From NCBI GenBank assembly GCA_000165345.1, contig CM000435.1, positions 1,184,001 to 1,248,000 of the forward strand: 64,000 bases of DNA, given 5' to 3'. Position 1 is the first letter of the stretch; every line of letters starts with the position of its first letter. Of this stretch, positions 3,322 to 18,175 are shown piece by piece. Made by a program: the position numbers and the translations under genes. The notes under the pieces are model-generated. The model was not told the DNA's origin, did not search any database, and saw nothing but the letters and a program-made list of their open reading frames with translations.

Positions 3322-6300
3322 TTATTCGCTTTCTTCATTAATTATCATATTTTTCAAAATCTGTCTTAAATCCAATTTCTTTGTTGTAGATTTTCTATAT
3401 TTGCTTCTCTCCATCTCTTTCTTTTCTGATAATAATTTTATACTATTTTCTACCCTTTTCTTTTCTCTTTCAATTTCTTCCTTAAGTCCAACTATGACTT
3501 TCTTTCCTAATGAAAATTTATCTTGTTCTAATCCCTTTATATTCATTTCCTTTTCCTTATTAATTTTCTCGCCAATCATTTTCAAATCTGCAATATATTT
3601 TTTTTGTAAATTTAAATATTCATTTTCTATCTGAGCTCTGCTTGCTTCTACTTTTAATGTAAGATCTTTCCTTTTTTGAGAAAAAACATTAATCTTTTCA
3701 TTCCACATATTTTCAATACGGGTTTTAATTAAAATGAAGTAAGCTTCCAGCTTCTTCTGACACTTTTCGTAAAGTCCTTTACTAGTTGTCTCTAACTTGG
3801 TCAGTGCATTCTCAAGTTGTTTATTTTCCTCTAATTTAAGCTTTGAAATACAAAGATCAGAAGGTAACGAAGAATAATTTTGATTCTGGTTAATATTATC
3901 ACGGTGATCTTTTTCTTTAGATTTACAAATAAAATTGTAATTATTTACTGTCATATTATCATCAAAGTTGGTATCAGGGCTAAAAATAGAATCAGAGATT
4001 GACATTTTACCAATAGAATTGAGGGATTTTAAAGAAAAATCAGAAAATCCTCTTTTTTTTGGCTTTCTCATTATTTCATCAAGTATCTCAGTCCCTGTTA
4101 TAGATGAATAATTATCAAAATAGTCTCCAGAATTAATAGAGCCAAATTCACCTTTAGTTTCAGTTTCTGTAATTTGCTCAAATATTTTATTAATTCCAGA
4201 GAAGATTACAGATTTAGTTTCTTCCAAATCATATTTTTCTGAAATATCTTCATCCATTTCTGAAGACTTGTTTTCATTTAAGCAATAAACATTTTCGGAT
4301 ACTTCTTTTATTTTTGATTTCGACTTTTGTTTCACTTTTTTCTTTTTCTTGTTTAATCCAATATTAATAACTGTTGGAGTTTTTTCATCATTTTCATTAG
4401 ATTCTTGTAAACTATCACGAGTATCCCCATTAATTTCTGATATCCACATATTTAATAGCTTGTCTGACCTGGAATCAGATGAATATTTTCTCTTCTTTAT
4501 TTCAATTTCCTCAGTTTCCTTTAATTCATCAAAACTTCCTAGAATTGGATATTCATTGTCAACAACTGCAATTTCTATGGGAACTATTGATTTAGTTTCT
4601 TCTATCTCTATATCTTTTTTGTTATTATTTATCTTTTTCACTTCATTTTCCTGCTTTTGTTTATCTTGATCTTGATCCTGTTCTTCTTCTGTTTCTTTCA
4701 TCCTTGTTGGGCAAGTAGTTTCATTTTCTATTGTAATTATACTCTCTTTAAGAGATTTAGGAGGCTCTGATCTTTTTGTTATTGGAGTAAATACCTCACT
4801 ATTCTCTTTTTTATTTACTTTTTTTGAAAGATCTTTCTTTTCCTTGAAATTAGCATTTTTTTCACAATCGTTCTTACCAAAAACTATGTCTCTTAATGTA
4901 TCATAACTAACTCTTTCGTAAACTATATCCATCTTTAGTTCATTACTTTCTTTATTGAATCTCCCTCTCTTTAACCCAGATGCTCTCTTATTTGTCTGGT
5001 CCAATGTTGAGATTGGAAAGGCAACTTTCTTTACCTCCTTTTCATCATGATCATCCATAAGACTATTGCAAACCTTTTTATTATTTTCTTCTAACTGTCC
5101 TTCATTAACATTTGAATTAAATTCAATTTCCCCATTTTTTTTCTTTTCTAAATTCACTTCTTGACCTTTTTTTTCAGTTTCTATCTTTTCCTTTTTTCTT
5201 TTAAGCTCTTCCTCTTCTTTCTTTTTCTTATTTTCCTCCTCTTTTTCCTTCTTTCTCTTATTCTCCTCTTCTTTTTCCTTCTTACTCTTTAGCTCTTCTT
5301 TCTTTTTCTTATTCTCCTCTTTTTCCTTTTTTTTCTTAATATCCTCTTCATTCTTTTTTTTGAGTTCCTCTTCCTTTTCTTCTTTTCTTCTGATTTCCTC
5401 TTCTTTCTTCCTTTTAATTTCTTCTTCCTTTTCTTTCTTAATCTTAAGTTCTTCTTCTTTCTTTTTTTTATTTTCCTCCTCTTCTTTTTTTCTTTTTATT
5501 TCCCCTTCCTTTTCTTTCTTACTCTTAAGTTCTTCTTCTTCTTTCTTTTTCTTATTTTCCTCTTCCTTTTCCTTCTTTCTCTTAAACTCTTCCTCTTCCT
5601 TCTTTCTCTTAATCTCCTCTTCCTTTTCCTTCTTTTTTTTAAGTTCCTCTTCTTTTTCTTTCTTTCTTTTAAGTTCCTCTTCTTTATTCCTTTTAATTTC
5701 TTCTTCCTTTTCTTTCTTCTTAATCTCTTCTTCTTTTTCCCTCTTACTATTTAGCTCTTGATCATCATTTTCCTTTCTTTTCAATAAATCCTCTTCTTTC
5801 TCAATTTCTTTTCCTTTAATCTCCTTCTTTTTCCCTCTTTTAAGATTAGCTGGATTCTTAACAGAAGAATTTAATACTTTGTCGTCTCTTTTCTGTTGCT
5901 GATAATTATCAAATTTGTCTATATTTACATCCGTTTCAATCTCTCTGTTGGTTGCTTCTGCATTTTTACATTCGAATTCAAGTAACTCTTTTCTATTTTC
6001 TTCTACTCTGCCTCCTTCAGCCTTCAAATTTCCTAGTTCAGGCTTCTTTTTGCTTCCTTCTATCTCATTGTTATTCAAGCTCTTACCCCTTAATCTTGAT
6101 TTATTATTCTTAGAAGTTTTATTTGGATTACTTTTCTTGCTTTTGACTTTATTTCTTTCATCTTTTTCTGAGTCTATCTCAACATCTTCTCTTCCTTCCA
6201 ATGCTATATTCATATTTGGTAATTTTCCTGGAATTAAAGAATCCAATCCTCTACTTTTATCTAATAATACTTCATTTGAAATATTTCTAGTATCTTCTTT

Positions 6301-8196
6301 ACAATCTTTTATATTCCAATCTAATTCTGAACTATCTGAAGAACTATTTTCACTCTCCATTTCCTGAGTAAGTTTCTTCTGTTCATTGATTAATCCAAAT
6401 ATGATCACATCCGCCTTATTCTTCTTCTTTTGAGAATCTTCTATAATATCCGAATTTAATATCATATTCTCTTTCTCCAATTCTTTAACTATTAGATTAC
6501 TACTCCTTATATCTGAATCTGCTTGACTACACTCTTTAGAAGAAACAAAACTAACTCTTCTTGCTTTGTCATCTATTTGTTGATTATATAATTGATTCTT
6601 TTTTGGAGTCATTTTTGATGTAGCGATTGACATCTTAACATTCTCAATATTCTTATATCTATTCTCAACACTTTCTAAAATGACATTATGTTGATCCATC
6701 TTATTTAATTCTTTAATTGAAACTATTCTAGAATCTACCATTGATACTTTTCTTGAAGGTGTCTCTATTTGTTTCATTCCTTGGATATTTTCAATCTTAC
6801 TTGCTTTAAATATACCCATTATTTGATATGCTTGCTCTTCATCTATAATTAATGATACTTTAAGTAAATCATCCTTCATTTTTGGTTTGCTCTGTAAATT
6901 CTCAATATTAGTTGAAAATATACCCGTCCAACTCTGCTTTATTTCAAGAAGTTCACTAAAAACTATATTTATATGAAGATTATTCGTATCATCATCATAT
7001 ATAATCGACTGAATAGTCCAGTATGGTATTTCAGCTGTTGAAACAAATGGCTTTAAATCCTTCTCCTCAGTATTTCCCATATCAATTGAATATTTTGATT
7101 GATTACTATGGCATTCCTCTTCATCTATATCACTGTGAAATACTATACTAAATGCACATATATCAATTACTGTTACCAATTTGATCTCCAAACCTTGCAT
7201 CTGAATTAAAATCCCAGATAATGACCAAATATTCTTTCCATTTCCATTACATGTTTTGTTCCATGGGGTTAATAATCCTCTAAAAGAAAAATCAAAGTTT
7301 TCTATTCCAATATATCTAAGTTGTATCAACCCTTCAGGCCATGATGACCTAAATATTTCAATAAAGCTTAATTCTTCATTATCACTTTGAGAGTAGCCCC
7401 TTCCATAATTTGTCTTCTTTAAAACCCTCCAAATCAATTCCCCTAATATAAGCTGTAAATCAAAATCAGGACATGTTAAAAACCTTTTTATGCATACTTC
7501 CATCAATGCAGAAGGTAAATAACAACTAGATTTCTGAATACTTGAAATCTGTTGTATCATTGTATAAGTCTCTGCTGCATATCTGCTGGATAATATAAAA
7601 CTATGGCCAATATATAGATATTCCAATACTCCATTGCAATTTGACCTTTTTGGTTCAATCATTGTTAATAGCTCAAACAAACTATATATATACTTTTCAA
7701 GCATTACCTTATCTTTTATAAACATTGGAGTCTGCTCAATATTATTCCTTGATTCAGTATCTTCTATATCTATTTTGCTGATTTCTAAATAATATTCATC
7801 CACCCAAGACATAAAAAACCCTGTAATATTTCTTAATAATGTAGCAAATTCCAATTCTACCACCTGGTTTTTTTGAGACACTGAAACTATTGAATAGTAT
7901 ACATTCATGAGAATTTTAATATTCTTTTCATCAATATCATTGTATCTCAAACTTTTATATTGAATTAATGTCCAGATAAATCTTAAACAACTGTTGCAAC
8001 AGGACCAATTATTATCTTTTAAAGAGTCCCCTAATATGCTAAAAATTTTTCTTGTTAAGTTTTTACCTATCTTTGTTGATTCATTTTCTTCTTCTCTTTC
8101 CAAAATTTCAACAATCCCATCTTCAATAATAACCCATAAATCTTCATTTCCCTTTACTTTCTCAAGCTTCTTTTCAAGCTCTAACTGCCAGTCCAT
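3322..8196 (-). CDS. Very large low-complexity protein with a central charged (K/E/R) coiled-coil repeat array and a C-terminal coiled coil
   Basis: 4.9 kb uninterrupted ORF. The track start 8220 is TTG; the first ATG is at 8196 (…SMDWQLELEKK). Central block is (KKEKEEEIKR)-type repeats. No enzymatic motif seen. Confidence 0.6.
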   Translation of the reverse strand: MDWQLELEKKLEKVKGNEDLWVIIEDGIVEILEREEENESTKIGKNLTRKIFSILGDSLKDNNWSCCNSCLRFIWTLIQYKSLRYNDIDEKNIKILMNVYYSIVSVSQKNQVVELEFATLLRNITGFFMSWVDEYYLEISKIDIEDTESRNNIEQTPMFIKDKVMLEKYIYSLFELLTMIEPKRSNCNGVLEYLYIGHSFILSSRYAAETYTMIQQISSIQKSSCYLPSALMEVCIKRFLTCPDFDLQLILGELIWRVLKKTNYGRGYSQSDNEELSFIEIFRSSWPEGLIQLRYIGIENFDFSFRGLLTPWNKTCNGNGKNIWSLSGILIQMQGLEIKLVTVIDICAFSIVFHSDIDEEECHSNQSKYSIDMGNTEEKDLKPFVSTAEIPYWTIQSIIYDDDTNNLHINIVFSELLEIKQSWTGIFSTNIENLQSKPKMKDDLLKVSLIIDEEQAYQIMGIFKASKIENIQGMKQIETPSRKVSMVDSRIVSIKELNKMDQHNVILESVENRYKNIENVKMSIATSKMTPKKNQLYNQQIDDKARRVSFVSSKECSQADSDIRSSNLIVKELEKENMILNSDIIEDSQKKKNKADVIIFGLINEQKKLTQEMESENSSSDSSELDWNIKDCKEDTRNISNEVLLDKSRGLDSLIPGKLPNMNIALEGREDVEIDSEKDERNKVKSKKSNPNKTSKNNKSRLRGKSLNNNEIEGSKKKPELGNLKAEGGRVEENRKELLEFECKNAEATNREIETDVNIDKFDNYQQQKRDDKVLNSSVKNPANLKRGKKKEIKGKEIEKEEDLLKRKENDDQELNSKREKEEEIKKKEKEEEIKRNKEEELKRKKEKEEELKKKKEKEEEIKRKKEEEEFKRKKEKEEENKKKKEEEELKSKKEKEGEIKRKKEEEENKKKKEEELKIKKEKEEEIKRKKEEEIRRKEEKEEELKKKNEEDIKKKKEKEENKKKKEELKSKKEKEEENKRKKEKEEENKKKKEEEELKRKKEKIETEKKGQEVNLEKKKNGEIEFNSNVNEGQLEENNKKVCNSLMDDHDEKEVKKVAFPISTLDQTNKRASGLKRGRFNKESNELKMDIVYERVSYDTLRDIVFGKNDCEKNANFKEKKDLSKKVNKKENSEVFTPITKRSEPPKSLKESIITIENETTCPTRMKETEEEQDQDQDKQKQENEVKKINNNKKDIEIEETKSIVPIEIAVVDNEYPILGSFDELKETEEIEIKKRKYSSDSRSDKLLNMWISEINGDTRDSLQESNENDEKTPTVINIGLNKKKKKVKQKSKSKIKEVSENVYCLNENKSSEMDEDISEKYDLEETKSVIFSGINKIFEQITETETKGEFGSINSGDYFDNYSSITGTEILDEIMRKPKKRGFSDFSLKSLNSIGKMSISDSIFSPDTNFDDNMTVNNYNFICKSKEKDHRDNINQNQNYSSLPSDLCISKLKLEENKQLENALTKLETTSKGLYEKCQKKLEAYFILIKTRIENMWNEKINVFSQKRKDLTLKVEASRAQIENEYLNLQKKYIADLKMIGEKINKEKEMNIKGLEQDKFSLGKKVIVGLKEEIEREKKRVENSIKLLSEKKEMERSKYRKSTTKKLDLRQILKNMIINEESE
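5170..5760. repeat. In-frame, imperfect ~30-bp tandem repeat array encoding KKEKEEE(L/I)KR units inside the large gene
   Basis: Periodic ctcttcctcttctttttccttctt-type units on the + strand (coding strand is -). The antisense frame yields the spurious SSSFFL 'ORF' 5360..5761. Confidence 0.7.
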
Positions 8197-8341
8197 TGAT
8201 TTCAATGACCATATATCCAATTCTGTTATTTTCTTTCCTTTCCTCTCAATGCAGAATTTACCAGTTTATTACCTTATTATACTTGTCAATTTTCTACTTT
8301 TTACTAGTTTCCCCCCACCCTCATTCTGCTCTTCCCCTTAT

Positions 8342-8380
8342 TGCATGCATGCAATTCACATTTACTTTCTATATACCGGT
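8342..8380. promoter_or_regulatory. TGCATGCATGCA cluster plus an ATATACCGGT element
   Basis: 5' spacer of the large KE-repeat gene. TGCATGCA is the type of site bound by ApiAP2 factors in apicomplexans. Confidence 0.4.
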
Positions 8381-8635
8381 GTCCACATGCAAATATTTTA
8401 AAAAAATAATTAAACAAATTTCTTGATAAAAAAGTAGTTAATTAATTTTTTAAAAATTTATATAATAGCTAGTTATGTTTGGTAACTACCATTTAATAAT
8501 TTAGTTTTAAATATAAAATAGTAAAAGCAGATCAGAAAATCAATTATAATATATTTTACTAGGCAAAAGTACTATTTATTAATTATAATAAATGCCATAT
8601 TTATATTTATTTTTCATTTTGAGAAAATGATTTTT

Positions 8636-9696
8636 TTATTGAGACTTTTTTCCTCCACCCATATGGACAGATGCATAACCAGTTGGTGGTGCATCATCAA
8701 TAGAGACCATTAAGTGCTCAGCATCCGACTCTACGGTTATGAAGTATTAATGAGTCATTTGTAGAAAATTAGATGATTCTGATATATTTAATAACTTACC
8801 TAGAATTGCAAGCTTTTCGGAATCGGTCAAAATGGAGTTACCTGCCATATCTTGACTTGCAGAGCCTAAAGATTTAAGAATAAATTATTTCATTTTAATT
8901 AGTTCATTAATTGATAAAAAAACTTACCGTCAATTTCTGCAGGAATTTCAACACTATCTTCTTCGCTCTCCTCACCCTTTGGTGTAGTCAAAGCATTTTG
9001 TGCAGCCATTGTTTGCTTTTGAATAATCTGAGAAATTGGCTTTCCATTAATAGTGAGGAATGGCTTGCCTTGGCTACTGTCCTTGATAATAATATCAATT
9101 CCAGAAGGTTTCAGCTCACCAACATTACTTCCAGCGAGTACATTTTGTTTTTTTGATATTGCTGGTAATTTACCACTTCTAACTCCAGTTTTTTCACATA
9201 AAACCATTTCTGTAATGGCATTCATCCAAATATTTCTCATATTTCTGTTTTTTGTGCATACATTATAGCCTATTCCTTTATCGCTTCTGATTCCAAAACA
9301 TATATCGGAAATACTATCTATTGGTAATAAAATAGATGTTGATGATAAAGTTACAATTGGTAATTTTCCACGGAATAATTGGAAATTTCCTTGGTGAATG
9401 ATACCTGAAACTCTTTCCAAAGCATCTGGATCTCCTGGAATTAATTGTCTATCTAATAATCCTTTTAATCCCTCTCCGCATTGACCAATTTGTTCGTCAT
9501 CTACAGTCAAAAGTGAGCTTCTAATTGTTCCCACTAATGACTCTATATCACTTTTTGTGTATCCTTTATTCACCAACTGATTAAATACTGACTCTGACAA
9601 TCCTAGATGAGTCTTTGCTCCTTTAACTAGTGCAATAGATGCAAGGAATAGTGTTGCTATTGAAATTCTTGCCATATTCCCAATTTTTTCAATCAA
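8636..9696 (-). CDS. Secreted hypothetical protein, three exons: complement join(8636..8730, 8791..8865, 8928..9675)
   Basis: First ATG at 9675 gives MARISIATLFLASIALVKG (signal-peptide-like). At 8927 the reading frame meets GTAAGT (plus-strand acttac 8922-8927). A 62-nt AT-rich intron ends in TAG. A 75-nt exon follows (…GSASQDMAGNSILTDSEKLAIL). A second GTAAGT (plus acttac 8785-8790) opens a 60-nt intron ending CCGTAG. A final exon runs to TAA at 8636 (ESDAEHLMVSIDDAPPTGYASVHMGGGKKSQ). The track ORF end 8899 (…GKFFYQLMN*) is intron read-through. Confidence 0.5.
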
Positions 9697-9857
9697 TAAT
9701 TAATTAAAAAAATTACTTGTAATTAAATACAATACTTAAATTCCTATTTCACTGCTATATTATCCTCATAATCTATCTAAATTCAAGTAAACACAAAATG
9801 CAATTACTATATACCGGTATTCATGCAAATCATTTTTTCAATTACGTATTCAATTTT

Positions 9858-9884
9858 CATGCATACATGCATACATGCATTGCA
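9858..9884. promoter_or_regulatory. CATGCATACATGCATACATGCATTGCA cluster in a divergent spacer with no E2F box
   Basis: Between the secreted spliced gene (start 9675, -) and the COWP-like gene (10214, +). Shares the 17-mer ATACATGCATACATGCA with 16710-16726. ATATACCGGT at 9809-9818. Confidence 0.4.
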
Positions 9885-10213
9885 AAATAAATTTGTCCAC
9901 ATAAAAATAAAATAAAAAATAAAATAAAAAAAATACTCGGAATAGAGTAAAATGAGTGAATTAAATAAGCTAAAGATTATTTATGGCAATATGAATTTGG
10001 TATTGAAAGGGGAGATCGAATATATTAAGGCCAGTGATTTAAGGTAAAAATAAAAAAAGGAAATATTGCTTCAGTACTCTAAGACAATTTTAATAAAAAA
10101 AATTAATAACAAATAAGCAAAATTCATTTGATTATTATTAATATTCTTAATATTATTTGATAAGTATGAAAATACTGTCAGCGAAATAAAAGCTGGGAAT
10201 CAAATAAGTAAAG

Positions 10214-12103
10214 ATGTCGACAAGAATTCAAATTTTCCTGTTAACTGTGCTTTTTATTGGATTATTTAACGATTCAGTGTCACAATTTACACAAAACTTG
10301 AAAATAATTGAATCAAAGTCTGTATGTGTAGATTCAGATATTTATGATTCAGAAACAGATATGTGCCTGGCGAAAGTTAATGCAATAAGTAAAAGTTGTC
10401 CTAAAAATTGTCAAAAGTTTGGTCATCTCTGCAAATGCATTGATGAAATTCCAATTCAGTCAATTTGCCCAAGCGAATATGTTCTTTCTCCAAATATGAA
10501 AAAATGTATCAAAGTGGAAAAGCTTGCACCTTCAATAGAATGTGGGAGAGGATTAAAGTGGTCAGAAAGTAAAAATATATGCGTTGGAGTAAAGTTATCA
10601 GCTCCAGAGCTGACATGTAGTAAAGAGAATTCCATGTTAATTAATGGAGTTTGTTTGACGTATAGTAAAAAGAGTATTCAAAATGTTTGTGAAGATGGGT
10701 TTATTATTAGGGAAAAAAATATATCAGAAAAGTCACAAACTGTCAAGTTAAATACAAGAGGAATTAAGACTGGACATCAGAATAATAATGATGAATCGAG
10801 AATTAGTACAAGTTATTGTGTAAAAGAACTTAGCTCACCTTATAATTTAGAATGCCCCAATGGTTTTATTCTAGACAGAGAAAGATCTTCATGTATTTCT
10901 CAGGTTTTCAGTGATCCAGAACCTAAATGCTTACCTGGCTTTGAGTTTGATAATAAATCTGAAACTTGCGTAAATAGGTCATTAGAAGAGTCTTCCAGCA
11001 GAGTATGTCCAAAAGATTATGTGCTTGAAGGTTTTCAGTGCGTCCAATCATCTTTTGTCAGTCCTGAGCCACGATGTAGAGAGGGATTCGTTTTTAGTGT
11101 TGAAGATGCTGCATGCATTAAAGTATTACGAGAGCCTCCATCATATAGATGCCCTTCTGATTTATATATTTTTGATGGAAAACAATGCGAACTAAGAAAA
11201 ACAGAGAAACCAACAATAATGTGTGGAAATGGGACCATTTTAGACGAAAAGATACAAAAGTGTGTTAAAATCAATGTAATGCCAGCAACAATGGTTTGTT
11301 CAGGAGGAAGACAGTATGACGAAGATAAAAGAAAATGTTATGTAATTCAAGTTCAAGAATCTAACAAAACTTGCTCAAGTGAAGAAAAATATGATCCAAA
11401 AAGGGATATGTGTATTAAATTTGAAGAAAAGAAACCCGTCAAAGGTTGCCCTTATGGTTTTAATCTTAATGAATTAGAACAAATTTGTGTTCAAGAAAAC
11501 TTCGAAGAACCCAAGCTCTCTTGTAAGGCTCCTTTCTCCTTAGTTGGAGGGGACTGCCTTTATAATGCTGAAGTTCAACCCGAATATGTTTGCCCTGAGA
11601 ATTTTGAGTATAATGCACAAAATTCGCAATGTTTAATGCAAAGTACTATACAGCCTGAAAATGGGTGCCCCGAAGATTATAATGAGTACATTGATAAATG
11701 TATTAAACAAATAGAAAAGAATCCAGTAAGTGTATGCCCTACGAATTCAAAGTTAAACACAATCACAAATGAATGCTTTATTCCTAAAAAACCATTGAAG
11801 GAGTGCCCTACAGGGTTTAAACCAACTAATGATTCTGCCACTCAATGCATTCAAATATTAAATCAAAATAGACCTCAAGCTATCCAAACTACCCACAGCA
11901 ATAATAACAGACATCACAACGGTCATCATCAAGCTTTCATTGGAGATTACTACAATAATCATCCCAATATAAGAAATTTCGGAGATGTAAGTAATACCCA
12001 GGTGCAAACAGTTCAACTATCAAATCCTAATAGAAGAATAGGAGATCCCAGCTTAAATGTATATCCTCAAAACATTAAAACCGCACCTAGACCAAGAAGG
12101 TGA
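10214..12103 (+). CDS. Secreted cysteine-rich protein with oocyst-wall-protein (COWP)-like repeats and a His-rich C-terminal tail
   Basis: Signal peptide MSTRIQIFLLTVLFIGLF. At least 11 reiterations of C-x(n)-C-P-x-(G/D)-(F/Y)-x(4-8)-C modules (ECPNGFILDRERSSC, VCPKDYVLEGFQC, GCPYGFNLNELEQIC, ECPTGFKPTNDSATQC…). Tail NNRHHNGHHQ. Confidence 0.6.
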   Translation: MSTRIQIFLLTVLFIGLFNDSVSQFTQNLKIIESKSVCVDSDIYDSETDMCLAKVNAISKSCPKNCQKFGHLCKCIDEIPIQSICPSEYVLSPNMKKCIKVEKLAPSIECGRGLKWSESKNICVGVKLSAPELTCSKENSMLINGVCLTYSKKSIQNVCEDGFIIREKNISEKSQTVKLNTRGIKTGHQNNNDESRISTSYCVKELSSPYNLECPNGFILDRERSSCISQVFSDPEPKCLPGFEFDNKSETCVNRSLEESSSRVCPKDYVLEGFQCVQSSFVSPEPRCREGFVFSVEDAACIKVLREPPSYRCPSDLYIFDGKQCELRKTEKPTIMCGNGTILDEKIQKCVKINVMPATMVCSGGRQYDEDKRKCYVIQVQESNKTCSSEEKYDPKRDMCIKFEEKKPVKGCPYGFNLNELEQICVQENFEEPKLSCKAPFSLVGGDCLYNAEVQPEYVCPENFEYNAQNSQCLMQSTIQPENGCPEDYNEYIDKCIKQIEKNPVSVCPTNSKLNTITNECFIPKKPLKECPTGFKPTNDSATQCIQILNQNRPQAIQTTHSNNNRHHNGHHQAFIGDYYNNHPNIRNFGDVSNTQVQTVQLSNPNRRIGDPSLNVYPQNIKTAPRPRR

Positions 12104-12271
12104 TAATTAATATATAAAAGTTAAATTGGCGCCAACAATTCATACACGTTAATTTCAATAATTATAATATTTAAGTCGAATTAACAATAAGGCCCATTAG
12201 TTTTGCTCAGAGATTAAAGAATATACCAGGATCTAAAGATTTTATTAATATAATTCTATGAGAGGTGAATA

Positions 12272-12637
12272 ATGCTTAAAAAGTTAGTATCTGGAAGTGA
12301 AGAACAGCCTGCAAATAAGACTCTATATTGCAAGAACTTGAACGATAAAATCAACAAAAAAGATTTAAAGATTCTATTATTTGAACTCTTTATTCAATTT
12401 GGTTTGATTGATAAGATTACAATAAGGGGAGGAAGCCCATATAGAGGCCAAGCATTCATTTTGTTTCAAGATTTAAATTGTGCAATCAATGCAAAAAATA
12501 GCATTAATGGCATGAATGTATTAGGTAAACCTATACATATAGAATATGCAAAAGAAAACTCAATTTTGAATCCTGGACTAGCGGAGAAAAAGAGCTCGGG
12601 ATACATATTGGGACCAAAAATGCCGGACAATAAATAA
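12272..12637 (+). CDS. U1A/U2B''-type snRNP protein (single N-terminal RRM)
   Basis: TLYCKNLNDKINKKDLKILLFELFIQFG…RGQAFILFQD…PIHIEYAKENS aligns with U1A [28 protein letters not shown]…RGQAFVIFKE…MRIQYAKTDS. Confidence 0.7.
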   Translation: MLKKLVSGSEEQPANKTLYCKNLNDKINKKDLKILLFELFIQFGLIDKITIRGGSPYRGQAFILFQDLNCAINAKNSINGMNVLGKPIHIEYAKENSILNPGLAEKKSSGYILGPKMPDNK

Positions 12638-12732
12638 AACAGAATTAAGAATTAGAAATATTACGATAGAAGTACATAAAAACAAATAATTCTATTAAAA
12701 CGTAACTCTTCTCACACAGAATATTTTGGTAC

Positions 12733-13263
12733 TTATTGAACATTCTCTATCAAGTTCTCAGCGTTTTCTGTATCAATCTTTGCAATCTTTTGAGGTAATC
12801 CTTTTACTGAATCCAATTTGTCAGTAGAGCCAAAACCTCCCTCACCTCTAGTAGTTTTGTCCAATTCATCGACAATACTGAAGGTAATTTTTTCTCCATT
12901 AAAAGAAACGAGTTGGAAATATCTCTCGCCCTTTTTGACTTGGAAGTCAAAATCTTTAATATTATCAACTGGTGCCAAAAGTTCGCCTCTATACCCAGCA
13001 TCAATCAATCCAACAGAGTTGCATAGTCTAATTGGCGACTTTGAAATTGATGACCTTGCAAATAAAAGGTAACTAACTGGCTTGCCATCATCACTGTGAG
13101 CTGCAGCTTTAAATCCAAGCTTGATGTATGCAGTTTCTCCTGCTTTAATCACTTGGTCTTCAATTATGAAAAGGTCAAGTCCTGAATCACCATCGTGAAA
13201 AGTTTTATGGTTTTTGTAGAGCTCTTCAGCTATGGGGCATAAAGGTAACAAAGATAGATGCAT
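12733..13263 (-). CDS. DUT: dUTP pyrophosphatase (trimeric dUTPase)
   Basis: Canonical dUTPase motifs: DSGLDL, GLIDAGYRGE, and C-terminal RGEGGFGSTD. Confidence 0.85.
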   Translation of the reverse strand: MHLSLLPLCPIAEELYKNHKTFHDGDSGLDLFIIEDQVIKAGETAYIKLGFKAAAHSDDGKPVSYLLFARSSISKSPIRLCNSVGLIDAGYRGELLAPVDNIKDFDFQVKKGERYFQLVSFNGEKITFSIVDELDKTTRGEGGFGSTDKLDSVKGLPQKIAKIDTENAENLIENVQ

Positions 13264-13652
13264 AGTTAAATAAAATACAAAATAATGTTCTCTCCTTTAA
13301 CCAGTAATTACTTAAAATAGTAAATCTTTAAATTTAATTAGTATTCTATAATTTTTTTTTCCTAACGGAAGATACCTACCTTATTTATTTGTATTATTGT
13401 ACTTTACCACTATTTAATCAGTTAGAAAAAATGACGTTTAGGCGGGAAATATGTGGGATGTATACCGGCATAGAAAAAATATGAAGGTGAGGAGAAAAGT
13501 AGAAATATAAATCGTTAAGATTCAAAACAAGATCCTATAGTATGAAAACAAAAGCATAGCTCCTGTATTTGTGAGTATTGGTCAAGTTAGATTTTAAGAC
13601 CAATGATAATAGTGTTATTAGCTAAATCATCCCAACGGTTATAAGCGGAGCA

Positions 13653-15005
13653 TTACATGTCGTTCTTGATGTTTCGAATGAGAACCTTGGTAAGGCTTTC
13701 CTTTGAGTTGAAGTTTATTTCATTGCATTGAGATTCAACATATTTGGAAACAAGAATAACTGGGAGAGGATTTGGTGGGTCAACCTTCTTAATTGATTCC
13801 GTATCAATAGGTAATGGAGTCTCACCCTTGAGTTTTCTTTGTTCATTTTCAATTCTTCTCCTTTCTGCCATCTGTTTGATAAGGTATTGCTGTTTGTTAT
13901 AGTCCCTATATCCTTTGTAAAGTTTCTCTTGTTCTAATGACAAAACATCGATAGATTCTGCGAGATTTAATAGCGCCTTGTCATTGATATCAAGGGGTGT
14001 TTTTGTGTTGATAGATAATTCAGAATAGTCAATAGTGGATTGGAGTACATCTGAAGTTATCCAATCAAGTAGGAAAGCTTCAGAAAGAACTGGGTATTTA
14101 ATATAAATTGGGACTTCAACAAGAATATCCTCAAAGCTGGCATTCTTAAAAATGTGAAAGTTATCTTCGTCATCTTTGAGTTTGCTTGCATATTCAGAGT
14201 TCAAGGTAAAAGCTTTAAAAGCATTTTTCTTACCCTGAATAAGTAAGTCAGGATCAATGCTTAAAAGGATAGCATTTTTACTCTCAATGTTATTATAGTA
14301 AGATAATAATGTAGAAACAACTCCATAATCTTGGAAATCATCAAGACGTATAAGCTGGTACCATCCAAGCACAAAACAATCGGAACGTATTTCATGCATA
14401 AGCTCAACCATTGCAGCCTGATATTTGTCAACTTCTTCAACAAGACGCTCCTCTAAATCCAGTTTTTCTGATTTATCCAACTTTCCTCCACTATAGTTAG
14501 ACATGAGAGACGGAAGCAAATCTTCTCTTGTTGGAAGCTGGAAGGATGTTGTAATTTCTAGCTTATTGCCGTATTCCATACCTAGCAATTGACCTGTAGC
14601 ATTCATTTGTGAGTAGTTCTCTGTACAATGCTTAATAATTCTTAAAATGGCAGAAATATCAGCCTCTACTGAAGAAACTGTAGTTTTTGTTGATAAATGT
14701 TTATAGTGAGATGATCCTCCTGAATTTCCTATTGTATTTCCACTTGAAAAACTATAGTGCTGATGATGTCCAGTACCTGATGACAAAGAACCCTGTGAAA
14801 TCTGCTGTCCTCCTGACTGAGATTGAAAGTATCCAGATCCTTTTCCTCCTGAAATACCTGAAGAACCAGAAAGTTGCTGGACCTCCTCTTTTGAATCTTT
14901 ATCTTCAGTCTGTCTGCTAATTCCCCAACCTACATGTTTCGTTGTTTGAGTGGCTCCTTCCATTGGATTAGAACTCAACCCTATTAGGCCGTCTTTCCCG
15001 ATCAT
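13653..15005 (-). CDS. MPN-domain protein, eIF3h/eIF3f-like, with a Gly/Ser-rich N-terminal extension
   Basis: ILRIIKHCTE…ATGQLLGMEYGNKLEITTSFQLP…CFVLGWYQ is an MPN fold without a JAMM His-x-His motif. The N-terminal ~120 aa are G/S/Q-rich. Confidence 0.4.
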   Translation of the reverse strand: MIGKDGLIGLSSNPMEGATQTTKHVGWGISRQTEDKDSKEEVQQLSGSSGISGGKGSGYFQSQSGGQQISQGSLSSGTGHHQHYSFSSGNTIGNSGGSSHYKHLSTKTTVSSVEADISAILRIIKHCTENYSQMNATGQLLGMEYGNKLEITTSFQLPTREDLLPSLMSNYSGGKLDKSEKLDLEERLVEEVDKYQAAMVELMHEIRSDCFVLGWYQLIRLDDFQDYGVVSTLLSYYNNIESKNAILLSIDPDLLIQGKKNAFKAFTLNSEYASKLKDDEDNFHIFKNASFEDILVEVPIYIKYPVLSEAFLLDWITSDVLQSTIDYSELSINTKTPLDINDKALLNLAESIDVLSLEQEKLYKGYRDYNKQQYLIKQMAERRRIENEQRKLKGETPLPIDTESIKKVDPPNPLPVILVSKYVESQCNEINFNSKESLTKVLIRNIKNDM

Positions 15006-15161
15006 CTTGGCAAATTCTTGCTTCTGGAGCCGTAGTTCTAATTATTTATATCCTTTATTTTATACAAATATCAAGGTTTTAAAAGTTAAAACCTTTTTGT
15101 CAATTTAATATTTCTTTCCACTTTTTTCAGTCATATAGTCAATTAAAGCAATATTAGCCTT

Positions 15162-15179
15162 TTGGCGCCATGGCGCCAC
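15162..15179. promoter_or_regulatory. Paired E2F-type box, perfect 14-bp palindrome GGCGCCATGGCGCC, upstream of the MPN/eIF3-like gene
   Basis: TTGGCGCCATGGCGCCAC lies 160 bp upstream of the ATG at 15005. A TATACCGGC element follows at 15201-15209. Confidence 0.6.
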
Positions 15180-15337
15180 ATTTCGAGACGAGTATTTTTA
15201 TATACCGGCTAATTTACATGATCATTTGGAATTAGGGGGAAATGGCGAGTAAAGAAAATTGTAAAAAAAGCTATAATTAAGTAAAACTAAATAGAAAGCT
15301 TGAAACTGTCATATTAATGACTTAAAGGTATATAAGA

Positions 15338-16579
15338 CTAGGTATTAAATAGAATTGACTGTAGGCATGCGGGAAGATCAACTTCAATATTGCCGTACAA
15401 ATATTCGTTAAAAAAGCATCCGTTGGAGATCTGTTTATTTAGACTTAGGTTTTTATAAAGCTGATTTTTTGTAGAGATCCTCTTCAGTGTGAGATGAGAT
15501 GAATCTATCTGATTGAGAAAGTAGAGTGAAATTTGATTTAGCGTGACAAAGTCTTTATTGCATGATTGTTTTGTCATTTGAATTAGGTTAAAAATTTCGG
15601 ACTTAAGAGCCCACCAACTTTTATATCCTTTTTCTGAATTTGAGTTTACTTGTTCTAAGTAACAATTTGGGTGATATTGTTGGATAATATGGTTTGAAAT
15701 CGAGAAACATAGAGAAAAGTTGTCGATTATGTTAATTTCAATGACCCCATTTAATAATTTGTTTTTGCTTATAATGTTAAAAGTTTCGAGAACTTTACTA
15801 AAAATTGAGCTCAGGATTGCTTCCCTAATATAACAAGAAGAACAAGATTGTTTTCTTTTTTGAACGTTTTCATTTGGCTCTGAAACATCGCCTTCCTGAG
15901 TACAATTTGCAAGGGATATAATAAGATCTGACAGTACGGGACGTGATAGCCAAGTCAGAACATTATCATCCTTCCAATTACAGTTTATTAAAGTATTTAC
16001 AATTTCTCTGCAAATTTGGAACATTACTATACGAATATTGGAGAAATGTGAGTACTTTGTGATCATATCAAACATTGATAATATAAAGGACGGGAATAGA
16101 CTTTTCTTCTCATGCCATGATGCTTCATTGATGCTATTTTCGTAGATAAACTCTTTTGTTGCAAAATAATTTTGAGATTTTTGAGTACTCTCAATATTTT
16201 TATTGATAAATATTGAAATATTTTCTGGTCTACACATTTCAGTTATAGACTTAAATGTTCTTGTTAAAACCTCAAAATCATCCAAATCAATACAACCTGT
16301 TGAAATAGCCTCCCTTATCTCAAGTATATCTGGAATCTGATTAATTAGAGAATTAAAGTTATTTTCTTTATTATAATCAAAATCTATTAAAGAAAGTGAA
16401 CTCCTGGAATTAATGGCCCCTAGAATTCCAGACTTTATTTTCTCTTTGGTAACTTTCTTTTGGTCTTCATTCAAAAATTCATTTGAATCTTGTACTACTG
16501 AAGTCAGTATTGTAATAAAGTCCACTATAGAATCCTCATTTTCCTCAAATAAACTCAAATTATGACCAGTTACATCCAT
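15338..16579 (-). CDS. Hypothetical protein
   Basis: 413-codon ORF with an ATG start. E2F-like GGCGGG box and a TGCATG cluster about 110-150 bp upstream. No recognisable domain. Confidence 0.5.
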   Translation of the reverse strand: MDVTGHNLSLFEENEDSIVDFITILTSVVQDSNEFLNEDQKKVTKEKIKSGILGAINSRSSLSLIDFDYNKENNFNSLINQIPDILEIREAISTGCIDLDDFEVLTRTFKSITEMCRPENISIFINKNIESTQKSQNYFATKEFIYENSINEASWHEKKSLFPSFILSMFDMITKYSHFSNIRIVMFQICREIVNTLINCNWKDDNVLTWLSRPVLSDLIISLANCTQEGDVSEPNENVQKRKQSCSSCYIREAILSSIFSKVLETFNIISKNKLLNGVIEINIIDNFSLCFSISNHIIQQYHPNCYLEQVNSNSEKGYKSWWALKSEIFNLIQMTKQSCNKDFVTLNQISLYFLNQIDSSHLTLKRISTKNQLYKNLSLNKQISNGCFFNEYLYGNIEVDLPACLQSILFNT

Positions 16580-16690
16580 TTAGCTAAAGATATAACTTTC
16601 CAAGTAATTAATATAGATCAATAAAAATTTAGTTCTTTCAGTTTCATTTATATACATAAATTAATTAATATAAAAAAATCTGCCATATTT

Positions 16691-16730
16691 GGCGGGAATA
16701 TTGTGCATGTATACATGCATACATGCAAGC
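16691..16730. promoter_or_regulatory. GGCGGGAA box immediately followed by a TGCATG cluster (GTGCATGTATACATGCATACATGCAAGC)
   Basis: 110-150 bp upstream of the 15338..16579 gene start. Confidence 0.45.
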
Positions 16731-16736
16731 TTGTGG

Positions 16737-17609
16737 TTATGTGGGATGGATTGCTTTTTTTAGACTCTTAATAATAATTTGATGAATTGTTCTAGAAGTT
16801 TTTTGTGGAATTTCTGGATCATGTGAAACAATATGTACTGGCCAGTTCGTTGCATTATTTACAGTATTGGAAATGATTTCATCTTGAAGTTTTTGCAAAA
16901 AATCTATTTTTTCAGGGTTTACTCGGGTTTTTTTCAAATCTGCCTTAAGTAAAATTGGTATAAAGAGTAAGCTAATCGAATCTTCATTTTTTCTTGGAAG
17001 AAAGTAAAGTGGAAAAGAATGATTTACGGAATCATCTTCCATTTCGTTAATTAGAATTGGGGCAGGAAAAAGACCACCAGAGTGAAGCTCAAAAATATAT
17101 GGCAAAAATAGATTGTGGCCGGACAAAATGATAGATTTTCCTTGTTTTATTGCCTTTTCAATATCAACTTGAATACCTTTAGTAATTTCTCTTGAATCAA
17201 TCAAGTAGTTTGAAAAGCTAAAATTATCATTTTCTTTAGTATTATTTGTCTTTCCATGGTAAATTCTCAATGTTTCCTTAACAGTATTTGTGGATACAAC
17301 ATTTGGAATATTCAAATAATGCGACAAATCAATAATCACAGAGGATTTGTTTGAGCCTTGTATTCCAAATATAAGAGGAACAATTGCAAGCTTTGATGTA
17401 AACATTTCTTTCATAACTTTAATTTCTTTGCTAATATCTCTGTTGATTATTAATAGTGTATTCTTCGCAAGCATATCCAAAAATTCATCTTTATATTCAT
17501 CAACGTTAATTTCTGAAAGAGTATCTAGGATTTTATCTATTTGATCATTATCATAGACCTGACATGTAAGAAGTAACCTTCTGATATTGAAAGTATTTAG
17601 AGTCAACAT
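16737..17609 (-). CDS. Hypothetical protein, possibly a degenerate P-loop kinase-like fold
   Basis: PLIFGIQGSNKSSVIID…VVSTNTV loosely resembles the Walker-A/VISTD region of 2-phosphoglycerate-kinase-like proteins. Weak. Confidence 0.3.
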   Translation of the reverse strand: MLTLNTFNIRRLLLTCQVYDNDQIDKILDTLSEINVDEYKDEFLDMLAKNTLLIINRDISKEIKVMKEMFTSKLAIVPLIFGIQGSNKSSVIIDLSHYLNIPNVVSTNTVKETLRIYHGKTNNTKENDNFSFSNYLIDSREITKGIQVDIEKAIKQGKSIILSGHNLFLPYIFELHSGGLFPAPILINEMEDDSVNHSFPLYFLPRKNEDSISLLFIPILLKADLKKTRVNPEKIDFLQKLQDEIISNTVNNATNWPVHIVSHDPEIPQKTSRTIHQIIIKSLKKAIHPT

Positions 17610-18027
17610 ATTATTTACTTTAATCCCAAATTTACTTATTCAAAATATTTTAAGTTTATATTACGTTTTAAATTTGTCTTAAATATTACATAGAACACAA
17701 TTTATCTTCAATTAAACATTGTTTGGAGGCCTTAGAAATGCTTTATGTTTGTGTGTGTATGAGTAAGTTACCTATTTATATTTCAAAAAAAAATTTCAAC
17801 CTATTGTTTAATATTTCAATTAAAGCCTAATTACCAGAAAAACTATTCTGATCTTAATCTATTCCAACATTCTGAATAACTAATGCAACATTATTCCAGA
17901 ATATATCTGATTTGCAAGCTAATCTCTCACTCTTTATTGTTATTTTATGCCCTATTTATTTAATTTAATTTTTTTTTATTTTAGTTTATTCTTGCTTGAA
18001 TTTCAAGATATTATTACTCCATAGTCC

Positions 18028-18060
18028 TATACCGGTACCGCTTCAGTCGATTTTGGCGCC
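18028..18060. promoter_or_regulatory. TATACCGGTACCG element plus a GGCGCC box in a divergent promoter
   Basis: TATACCGGTACCGCTTCAGTCGATTTTGGCGCC lies between the 17609 (-) and 18176 (+, bromodomain) starts. Confidence 0.5.
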
Positions 18061-18175
18061 AACAGGTTTTCTAACTAATATTTTTAAGAATTTCAAAAGA
18101 AAAAAATAAAAAGAAAAGAAAAAAATTCAAGCAAAGAAAGACAAAGGAGAGAGTTACTCTTGTTCTTAACTTTGT

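Follow-up and report, generated by a model that had tools for sequence, protein, structure and literature searches.

COWP5 of Cryptosporidium parvum, a type I-only oocyst wall protein, and the spacer shared with its divergent neighbour cgd7_5140

The COWP5 locus

The window, which is the whole stretch of DNA that was analysed (64,000 nucleotides), carries on its plus strand a single-exon coding sequence (10214-12103) that starts with ATG and, according to the ORF list, encodes 629 aa followed by a stop, as the initial annotation had read it. In an exact-sequence look-up, the protein agreed at 629/629 residues with "oocyst wall protein 5" of C. parvum Iowa II (EAK90472.1, Q5CXS2, cgd7_5150). 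Positions 4214-18103 of the window are 100% identical to C. parvum CP141124.1, and the window is part of C. parvum chromosome 7. Nothing distinguishes the gene from cgd7_5150, and the neighbours are also the same, with cgd7_5140 upstream in divergent orientation and genes for an RRM protein, a dUTPase and eIF3h downstream. With high confidence, the gene is COWP5 (cgd7_5150) of C. parvum, encoding a putative structural protein of the oocyst wall. The COWP-like secreted cysteine-repeat protein that had been proposed from the sequence is COWP5 itself, as indicated by this identity and by the profile matches to CpCOWP1 and TgOWP3 given below. The name COWP5 reportedly dates from 2004 and the protein was put in the wall in 2025; it was already known, and no new entity is described here.

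Upstream of COWP5 lie the following features:

8899..9675, minus strand: cgd7_5140 (CpSP1), single-exon ORF; newer annotations extend it to 8636 as a spliced gene of 302 aa
9676..10213, no strand: divergent intergenic spacer between cgd7_5140 and COWP5, 538 bp, from the gene calls in C. parvum assemblies

Both published cloning primers of cgd7_5140 match the window exactly (9592-9615, minus strand; 8899-8932, plus strand). The gene call in C. parvum assemblies spans 8636-9675, and no single GT-AG intron of 131 nt was found that would yield the 302-aa spliced model. The product of cgd7_5140 begins with the signal-peptide-like sequence MARISIATLFLASIALVKG, which bears out the early remark that COWP5 is divergent to another secreted gene.

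Cysteine scaffold and family relations

The first 548 residues of COWP5 are laid out as follows:

10214..10282, plus strand: putative signal peptide, about aa 1-23 (Kyte-Doolittle profile and AF2 helix 3-19)
10325..10465, plus strand: first hairpin module and four-cysteine knot (C38, C51, C62, C66, C73, C75), gaps 13-11-4-7-2-10
10466..10717, plus strand: modules 2-5, with a-cysteines C85, C110, C135 and C159 and a spacing of 12-13 residues; the linker splits module 5
10718..10804, plus strand: cysteine-free, low-confidence linker inside module 5, aa 169-197 (pLDDT < 50; Cys gap 43)
10817..11857, plus strand: C202, which closes module 5, and fourteen tandem two-cysteine modules of 23-26 aa each (aa 202-548, from the module stack)

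The N-terminal MSTRIQIFLLTVLFIGLFNDSVSQ is the sole strongly hydrophobic stretch of COWP5 (11-residue Kyte-Doolittle mean up to 2.99), and AF2 models aa 3-19 as a helix, which is consistent with the signal peptide suggested earlier and with the lack of a transmembrane segment. The protein contains 42 cysteines at a very regular spacing of 12/13 residues (35 of the 41 gaps measure 11-13 residues), and all 42 are invariant in an alignment of 12 Cryptosporidium orthologues. They are distributed over 19 two-cysteine modules and the four-cysteine knot (19 x 2 + 4 = 42). The AF2 model, which is weak overall (pTM 0.27), gives the modules a beta-hairpin pattern with strands around each cysteine (pLDDT 70-88), while the linker and the tail fall below 50.

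According to positional counts in the module stack, the consensus of the modules in aa 202-548 is C-[P]-x-[G]-[FY]-x(6-8)-C-x(6-8)-P-x(3). The C-P-x-G-[FY] motif is degenerate in COWP5: among the 19 modules, proline stands at +1 in nine, glycine at +3 in nine and phenylalanine or tyrosine at +4 in 11, and C-P occurs 10 times in the protein. The strict motif is present in three copies (C214, C412 and C531), compared with 27 in COWP1 and five in TgOWP3. The initial annotation had counted at least 11 such motifs, a number that requires either a relaxed pattern or a tally of the aromatic residue at +4; what the protein holds is 19 looser two-cysteine modules.

Orthologues of COWP5 occur throughout the genus (45-98% identity). 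Word-index homology searches, with the single COWP5 protein and with the orthologue profile, retrieved the nine clusters of COWP5 orthologues without any paralogue. CpCOWP1 (E 1.5e-22, 12 matched stretches) and TgOWP3 (E 4.9e-57) were both reached in a 1.84-billion-protein library with the orthologue profile by a full HMMER scan of representatives, and the profile also matched oocyst wall proteins of Cardiosporidium, Vitrella and Chromera. In direct BLASTP comparisons, COWP5 matched COWP1 at E 4e-21, most strongly within the type I region of COWP1 (residues 42-694), and TgOWP3 at E 6e-53, with 25% identity across 593 columns.

The two repeat types were defined according to a previous study (PMC4514997) and COWP1's own cysteine gap string. 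The type II gap string of 12-11-8-5-12 (six cysteines with His-rich spacers) was not found in COWP5, which is a type I-only member of the COWP/OWP family, like the TgOWPs (PMC4514997). Comparison of the cysteine spacing with both COWP repeat types, named at the outset as the check on the assignment, gave a type I-like match and not the failure to match that was to speak against it. COWP1 resembles COWP5 in its signal peptide, its tandem two-cysteine C-P-x-G-[FY] hairpin modules and its location in the oocyst wall. It differs in its size (1623 aa, 124 Cys), in its tighter type I units (gaps 11-12-11-10-11-10, 65 aa per six Cys), in its type II repeats, which COWP5 lacks, and in its high expression, that of COWP5 being weak (PMC12548878). 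Type II repeats are a feature of COWP1 that family membership does not require.

TgOWP3 is close to COWP5 in length (640 vs 629 aa) and has a collinear cysteine scaffold with the same N-terminal knot. The N-terminal gap string of COWP5 recurs in TgOWP3, Hammondia OWP3 and Cardiosporidium OWP3 and is the signature of the COWP5/TgOWP3 orthogroup. The two proteins agree in all the features by which this orthogroup is recognised, namely the knot (gaps about 13-12-4-8-2-10), the linker position, the gap count and the CIKVLREPP segment. In both, a cysteine-free linker follows the sixth regular cysteine and is itself followed by 28 regular gaps, with an equal number of regular cysteines behind the linker. 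They also have in common a CRDGF...CIKVLREPP segment, of which CIKVLREPP is kept through to Toxoplasma. TgOWP3 differs from COWP5 in its sequence, at the 25% identity given above, and in its linker of 107 instead of 43 aa, and it has neither the His/Asn tail nor the NIKTAPxPR motif. Antibodies against TgOWP1-3 label the Toxoplasma oocyst wall (PMC4514997).

The spacer shared with cgd7_5140

Three elements stand out in the spacer:

9811..9828, no strand: conserved block ATACCGGTATTCATGCAA, with an ACCGGT palindrome and a CATGCA half-site, near-invariant in a six-species alignment
9858..9879, no strand: CATGCATACATGCATACATGCA, three CATGCA units, which are one-mismatch candidate sites for AP2_1 (TGCATGCA), from a motif scan
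9936..9952, no strand: conserved block CTCGGAATAGAGTAAAA, candidate core promoter or transcription-start element, near-invariant in six species

The initial annotation had described a shared TGCATGCA spacer. This exact 8-mer occurs seven times in the window and is absent from the spacer (9676-10213), where the conserved CATGCATACATGCATACATGCA cluster is found instead, containing two one-mismatch copies of the 8-mer (TACATGCA). A further element, TTCATGCAA, lies at 9820-9828. In total, CATGCA/TGCATG occurs four times in the spacer (7.4 per kb, vs 0.5 per kb window-wide), an enrichment with a shuffle p of ~1e-4 (mononucleotide) or 1.5e-3 (first-order Markov). At the position aligned to CATGCATACATGCATACATGCA in the six-species alignment, C. 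meleagridis and C. canis have the exact TGCATGCA and C. ubiquitum has GCATGC. Similar clusters, unaligned and at a comparable distance from the ATG, are present in C. bovis (exact TGCATGCA) and in C. felis and gastric species (GCATGC); the spacers of C. bovis, C. felis and gastric species also contain TACCGG-type elements. No E2F-like (GGCGG) or AP2_2 (GCACAC) motif was found in 9676-10213; such motifs have been reported upstream of some COWP genes.

We weighed whether a 31-aa ORF at 9952-10047 might be a small gene or a first exon and rejected it. The chipmunk genotype and C. ubiquitum have lost its ATG, an insertion breaks its frame in C. meleagridis, and it is not called in current NCBI annotations. 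A 2007 study gave the upstream length of COWP5 as 170 bp, apparently with this ORF as the "previous CDS".

The spacer might act as one bidirectional female-stage promoter, with the conserved GCATGC-type (AP2_1) cluster as its key element, so that COWP5 and cgd7_5140 would form a co-regulated divergent pair. We consider this a tentative reading, somewhat more doubtful than probable. The head-to-head arrangement was present in 9/9 Cryptosporidium species loci examined, conserved non-coding blocks lie in the middle of the spacer, and a CATGCA/GCATGC cluster enriched over chance occurs in every species. Previous studies showed that the cgd7_5140 transcript cannot be detected earlier than 24 h and is highest at 48 h (PMC3305300) and that the tagged protein is found in female gametes only (PMC6877471). 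COWP genes peak at 48-72 h, AP2_1-like motifs lie upstream of class II COWPs (PMC3734150), and AP2_1-like sites are bound by the female-specific AP2 factors cgd2_3490 and AP2-F (PMC12246861).

However, ablation of AP2-F lowered the crystalloid-body genes, among which a review lists cgd7_5140, and left the oocyst-wall genes as a class unchanged (PMC10233709; PMC12246861), so that at least one regulator is probably not common to the two genes. The expression of COWP5 is also much weaker than that of strong female genes (PMC12548878), and the missing exact 8-mer in the C. parvum spacer likewise counts against a shared promoter. Of the stage-co-regulated pair proposed in the initial annotation, the female-gamete specificity of cgd7_5140 and the genus-wide conservation of the pairing and of the GCATGC-type cluster stand, and common control is put in question by the reported AP2-F dependence of cgd7_5140 alongside an unchanged oocyst-wall class.

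The tail, the knot and the oocyst wall

Behind the modules, three features make up the C-terminal part of COWP5:

11858..12100, plus strand: cysteine-free C-terminal tail, aa 549-629, predicted disordered (pLDDT 25-36)
11894..11968, plus strand: His/Asn/Tyr-rich stretch, aa 561-585, HSNNNRHHNGHHQAFIGDYYNNHPN, with six of the eight histidines of the protein
12071..12100, plus strand: C-terminal motif N-I-K-T-A-P-x-P-R, aa 620-628, with invariant columns N620-R628 in 12 orthologues

The His/Asn-rich tail noted earlier exists, with NNRHHNGHHQAFIGDYYNNHPN at aa 564-585 and the six histidines between aa 561 and 583, and it is poorly conserved. Within the genus, the tail shows low conservation except for its last 10 residues (12 orthologues), and an alignment found no counterpart in TgOWP3. 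The stretch is His-rich in the parvum clade and in gastric species, and an Asn-rich sequence replaces it in C. bovis and C. ryanae. NIKTAPxPR was present in 18/18 retrieved Cryptosporidium COWP5 sequences and absent from every other family member in the set of 186 retrieved sequences. Judged by these alignments, the genus-invariant NIKTAPxPR is the better-conserved feature of the tail.

This motif could be a docking, sorting or processing signal used in assembling the wall. That it is one, and that the spacer in addition is a genus-wide bidirectional female-stage promoter built on ACCGGT, the GCATGC-type cluster and CTCGGAATAGAGT, is a speculative combination that we think rather unlikely to hold as a whole. 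If true, the spacer would offer a small natural system for studying how one sequence is read into two different female programmes, because cgd7_5140 is reported to depend on AP2-F and the wall genes are not.

The His/Asn/Tyr stretch might, in line with the metal binding or cross-linking suggested in the initial annotation, be a functional element that would harden the wall, either by metal coordination through its histidines or by dityrosine formation through its YY pair. Six histidines within 23 residues adjoin a DYY, the gastric-species orthologue also has His runs (HHHHNHYHNH), and OWP3-type proteins of other taxa carry His-rich low-complexity segments elsewhere in their sequence. COWP1, with 61 histidines, has His-rich spacers between its type II repeats (PMC4514997). 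However, the His patch is not conserved, being Asn-rich in C. bovis and C. ryanae, the C. felis tail is shortened, and TgOWP3 has no such tail. The sole invariant part, NIKTAPxPR, contains neither His nor Tyr, and a bulky C-terminal mNeon fusion still got to the wall (PMC12548878). We regard a cross-linking or metal-binding tail as improbable.

Two Pfam domains came near to the protein. CBM_14 (PF01607) scored 21.2 bits on aa 52-100 against a cut-off of 22.1 (E 3.3e-4), with matches of any score in 2/7 orthogroup members, and cEGF (PF12662) scored 15.6 bits on aa 213-227 against a curated cut-off of 26.6, with sub-threshold matches in 6/7 members (best E 4.4e-4). Both were rejected as domain memberships because their scores are sub-threshold. 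The last disulfide-bonded hairpin of EGF-like domains resembles the C-x-x-G-[FY]-x(n)-C hairpin of COWP5; unlike EGF-like/cEGF and peritrophin-A CBM14 domains, the COWP5 modules have two cysteines instead of six. Searched with a profile, the PDB sequences yielded no match at E up to 0.01. Foldseek with the AF2 model against the PDB returned nothing meaningful (best E 0.47, TM 0.04-0.10), as expected for a long and flexible model with such a low pTM.

That COWP5 is chiefly a lectin-like glycan-binding anchor rather than a passive brick, its N-terminal knot being a diverged peritrophin-A/CBM14-type domain that ties the protein layer to a wall polysaccharide or glycoprotein, is very unlikely. In its favour, the CBM_14 score lies just 0.9 bit under the curated cut-off, several database records name orthologues "Chitin-binding type-2 domain containing protein", and the knot gap string is kept from Cryptosporidium to Toxoplasma and Cardiosporidium. 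However, the score is below threshold and the match is found in few orthogroup members; it also overlaps a C-P-x-x-Y...C hairpin (C85-C98) of the type repeated protein-wide, so that the resemblance may lie in this generic hairpin and not in the knot. The usual six-cysteine peritrophin-A pattern is unlike the COWP5 spacing of 11-4-7-2-10-13, and to our knowledge chitin has not been reported from Cryptosporidium walls.

The reading of COWP5 as a structural wall protein agrees with published localisation. In 2025, COWP5-mNeon was found evenly across the oocyst wall, also under the cowp1 promoter (PMC12548878), which supplies the tagged-protein test that the initial annotation had asked for. The tagged protein was an ectopic, C-terminally tagged copy, used because endogenous tagging failed, and its signal was "particularly dim", COWP5 being weakly expressed (PMC12548878). 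Expression in the female gamete (macrogamont) has been shown directly for COWP1, COWP6 and COWP8 and is indicated by sorted-female transcript data for COWP5; COWP8, which is much more abundant than COWP5, is dispensable (PMC12548878). COWP5, COWP7 and COWP9 went undetected in an earlier mass-spectrometric analysis of purified walls (PMC3734150), and an oocyst-wall proteome has since detected COWP1-9 (PMC9508764).

For COWP5 itself, we infer the disulfide pairing, the storage in wall-forming bodies and any role of the tail. The signal peptide would direct COWP5 into the secretory pathway of the female gamete. On the model of COWP1, wall-forming bodies may then store it until, after fertilisation, it is discharged into the proteinaceous inner wall. 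Mature COWP5 may be a long, extended molecule in which 19 short beta-hairpin modules with two invariant cysteines apiece are combined with the four-cysteine knot towards its N-terminus. As 42 is an even number, 21 disulfides would be possible, and hairpins stapled in this way could make a stiff, protease-resistant rod. Free cysteines or inter-chain disulfide exchange could knit COWP5 to other COWPs, and the disordered cysteine-free tail, with its modest His/Asn/Tyr patch and NIKTAPxPR, would be the likeliest contact site for other wall components.

The oocyst wall makes Cryptosporidium waterborne and chlorine-resistant, and its proteins are therefore of practical interest. Knowledge of the wall is unchanged by the present analysis. 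What is added is the repeat anatomy of COWP5 (19 modules and a knot, type I only), its cysteine-by-cysteine match with TgOWP3, the genus-invariant C-terminal motif and a phylogenetic footprint of the intergenic region between COWP5 and cgd7_5140, which could guide promoter dissection and truncation work.

Identity and wall localisation of COWP5

The initial annotation had assigned the gene to the oocyst-wall family from raw sequence, and this was borne out by exact-sequence look-up: the product is residue-for-residue identical to EAK90472.1 (UniProt Q5CXS2), "oocyst wall protein 5" of Cryptosporidium parvum Iowa II, and the identifier cgd7_5150 is used for COWP5 in two papers, one of which is PMC12548878. 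Both the gene and the family to which it belongs were already known. The stretch at window positions 4214-18103 matches the C. parvum chromosome record CP141124.1 with 100% identity, and the G+C content of the window (~31%) is uniform along its length. Orthologues of COWP5 with 45-98% identity were found in C. tyzzeri, C. hominis, C. meleagridis, the chipmunk genotype, C. ubiquitum, C. canis, C. felis, C. bovis and C. ryanae, as well as in the gastric C. muris, C. andersoni and C. serpentis; all 42 cysteine positions are unchanged across the 12 orthologues aligned.

Genes of the locus (window positions)
8899..9675, minus strand, cgd7_5140, both published cloning primers matching the window exactly
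8636-9675, minus strand, cgd7_5140 including the spliced model of the current NCBI annotation
9952-10047, plus strand, 31-aa ORF MSELNKLKIIYGNMNLVLKGEIEYIKASDLR inside the spacer, called by automatic gene callers (Logan assemblies)
10214..12103, plus strand, COWP5, 629 aa, ATG start (ORF list)
12272-12637, plus strand, 121-aa RRM protein, starting 169 bp past the COWP5 stop codon
12733-13263, minus strand, dUTPase, downstream neighbour of COWP5
13653-15005, minus strand, eIF3h-like protein, downstream neighbour of COWP5

[quoted passage not shown] Localisation of tagged COWP5 to the wall, proposed earlier as a check, has been published with the predicted result: COWP5-mNeon, expressed from an ectopic locus under its own or the cowp1 promoter, labelled the whole oocyst wall evenly, unlike COWP2-4, which mark the suture (PMC12548878). 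In the same study the label was dim, the expression stage was not imaged and native-locus tagging failed, the legend showing each such COWP with a neighbouring gene very close to its 3' end. The genes downstream of COWP5 are ordinary housekeeping genes. COWP5 was missed in one wall proteome (PMC3734150) and detected in a later one (PMC9508764).

Repeat anatomy and correspondence to TgOWP3

The N-terminus of COWP5, MSTRIQIFLLTVLFIGLFNDSVSQ, is the sole strongly hydrophobic stretch of the protein and forms a helix in the AlphaFold2 model, which fits the signal peptide already proposed and a soluble secreted protein. The 42 cysteines begin with irregular gaps (13-11-4-7-2-10), and the remainder are spaced by 12 or 13 residues with a single 43-residue break. 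When the repeat units were aligned at their first cysteines, 19 two-cysteine modules emerged, with the consensus C-[P]-x-[G]-[FY]-x(6-8)-C-x(6-8)-P-x(3); the first module holds four additional cysteines (C62, C66, C73 and C75; 19 x 2 + 4 = 42), and module 5 is interrupted by a low-confidence linker at residues 169-197. The claim of at least 11 C-P-x-G-[FY] modules did not hold, as the strict motif occurs three times and 11 needs a loosened pattern; the same number is also obtained by counting an aromatic residue at +4 from the first cysteine of each module.

The AlphaFold2 model, built from a 12-sequence alignment, has a mean pLDDT of 64.5 and a pTM of 0.27. Every cysteine is flanked by short strands, with pLDDT of 70-88 inside modules and below 50 in the linker and residues 549-629. 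We read this model as a flexible rod whose beta-hairpins are stapled by disulfides and whose tail is disordered. By analogy to the last hairpin of EGF-like domains, the two cysteines of each module would be paired with each other; the cEGF matches behind this analogy are sub-threshold only. Likewise, the CBM_14 matches are sub-threshold, the COWP5 family has no Pfam model, and no solved structure is related to COWP5 by sequence or fold.

Paralogues of COWP5 were not reached by word-index homology searches. A HMMER scan with the COWP5 orthologue profile against 1.84 billion representative proteins returned 246 matches (E up to 0.001), including CpCOWP1 (1623 aa, E 1.5e-22, 12 matched stretches), TgOWP3 of Toxoplasma gondii and Hammondia OWP3 (640 aa, E 4.9e-57) and, by cluster name, Cardiosporidium OWP3 and "oocyst wall proteins" of the chromerids Vitrella and Chromera. 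The profile also matched very large proteins of 3,900-5,400 aa over 13-22 stretches (profile matches P0016, P0020, P0022, P0026 and P0092), which could be OWP-like proteins of giant size from uncharacterised alveolates; P0016, located on a JGI metagenome contig, is unnamed.

The check proposed in the initial annotation, whether the cysteine spacing fits COWP type I or II repeats, was settled by comparison with the two repeat types of COWP1, of which the type I unit has gaps of 11-12-11-10-11-10 (65 aa per six cysteines), whereas the type II unit has gaps of 12-11-8-5-12 followed by a His-rich spacer of variable length. According to the gap strings, the regular part of COWP5 is type I-like with slightly longer modules (23-26 aa versus 21-23 in COWP1), and the type II pattern does not occur in the COWP5 gap string. 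BLASTP agrees with this assignment: the best COWP5-COWP1 alignments lie in the type I region of COWP1 (residues 42-694; E 4e-21), and the type II half aligns far more weakly (E 4e-8 and worse).

COWP5 and TgOWP3 are collinear cysteine by cysteine, sharing the N-terminal knot and, beyond a cysteine-free linker placed at the same point, an identical run of regular cysteines; the linker is 43 residues long in COWP5 but 107 in TgOWP3. BLASTP aligned them at 25% identity over 593 columns (E 6e-53), and both contain a CRDGF...CIKVLREPP segment seen only in the COWP5/TgOWP3 orthogroup. On these sequence grounds, COWP5 is the Cryptosporidium counterpart of TgOWP3, which accounts for the name "OWP3" on some C. 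felis and chipmunk genotype orthologue records.

TgOWP3 lacks a tail like that of COWP5. The His/Asn-rich tail quoted in the initial annotation is present, with six of eight histidines within residues 561-583, but this His/Asn/Tyr patch is modest and unconserved: C. bovis and C. ryanae are Asn-rich at this place, and the tail of C. felis is shorter. His-rich low-complexity stretches recur at other places in OWP3-type proteins of other taxa, and they separate the type II repeats of COWP1 (PMC4514997), so the COWP5 tail may have a compositional role. The final N-I-K-T-A-P-x-P-R is invariant in all Cryptosporidium COWP5 retrieved, gastric species included, whereas the other family members among the 186 retrieved sequences all lack it. 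Judged from the alignment, nothing else in the tail is strongly conserved, and this motif was absent from the earlier description.

The divergent neighbour and the intergenic spacer

The minus-strand gene at 8899..9675 was identified as cgd7_5140 by the exact match of both published primers. The head-to-head arrangement of COWP5 and cgd7_5140 holds at each of the nine species loci examined. Two models of the neighbour exist: a single exon ending at 8899 (258 aa from MARIS), as cloned in the CpSP1 antibody study with a reverse primer on the stop codon at 8899, and a spliced 302-aa form extending to 8636, which is the current NCBI model in C. parvum, C. hominis, C. meleagridis, C. ubiquitum and C. 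bovis and was not reproduced with a single 131-nt GT-AG intron. In C. canis (locus L009, 1-1992, minus strand) the orthologue is annotated as fused with a large upstream gene into a 1717-aa product; the two genes stay separate in all other species compared, and the merged product is probably an annotation error.

The transcript of cgd7_5140 is undetectable during the first 24 h and reaches its maximum at 48 h (PMC3305300). Published locations of the protein conflict: the antibody study from which the name CpSP1 derives placed it on the oocyst wall surface, a review citing hyperLOPIT data lists it in the sporozoite crystalloid body as AP2-F-regulated (PMC12246861), and Myc tagging stained oocysts and, in culture, only female gametes (PMC6877471).

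The shared TGCATGCA spacer that had been described was not found as such: there are no exact copies in 9676-10213 and seven in the whole window (0.64 expected), one of them at 11110 within the COWP5 coding sequence. Instead, the spacer carries CATGCATACATGCATACATGCA at 9858-9879 and TTCATGCAA at 9820-9828, and a six-species alignment revealed conserved blocks at four places.

Conserved spacer blocks in the six-species alignment (window positions)
9811-9828, ATACCGGTATTCATGCAA
9858-9879, CATGCA cluster
9897-9902, CCACAT
9936-9952, CTCGGAATAGAGTAAAA

CATGCA/TGCATG is enriched ~15-fold over the window average in this spacer (shuffle p 1e-4 to 1.5e-3). Exact TGCATGCA occurs in the spacers of C. 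meleagridis, C. canis and C. bovis, one-mismatch copies in those of C. parvum and C. hominis, and the GCATGC core in those of C. ubiquitum, C. felis and the gastric species. The ACCGGT palindrome inside ATACCGGTATTCATGCAA is near-invariant in six species (the window and loci L005-L009 of other Cryptosporidium species), and TACCGG-type elements also occur in the C. bovis, C. felis and gastric-species spacers (L010-L012); the palindrome has no counterpart among the published Cryptosporidium motif families compared. Elsewhere, two exact AP2_1 octamers overlap in TGCATGCATGCA at 8342-8353. This site falls past the 3' end of cgd7_5140 and before the start of a ~1624-aa minus-strand gene that ends near 8196, and so is upstream of the latter gene.

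AP2_1 (GCATGC-type) sites are bound by the female-specific cgd2_3490 and AP2-F (PMC12246861) and have been reported upstream of late-class COWP genes (PMC3734150). The proposed stage-co-regulated pair stands in part: COWP5 and cgd7_5140 both belong to the female programme, but loss of AP2-F reduces crystalloid-body transcripts and leaves oocyst-wall genes as a class unchanged (PMC10233709), which argues against simple co-regulation.

The 31-aa ORF at 9952-10047 was rejected as a gene and is probably spurious, since its coding sequence is not conserved between species: the chipmunk genotype and C. ubiquitum have lost its ATG, and the C. meleagridis copy carries an insertion. A 2007 study put the upstream length of COWP5 at just 170 bp, as would be expected had this ORF been taken as the previous CDS. 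The conserved blocks at 9811-9952 would have escaped motif studies limited to those 170 bp. What is added here to the known COWP5 is descriptive throughout, namely an architecture of 19 modules and a knot with type I repeats only, the one-to-one cysteine correspondence to TgOWP3, the invariant NIKTAPxPR terminus and the conserved footprint of the spacer.
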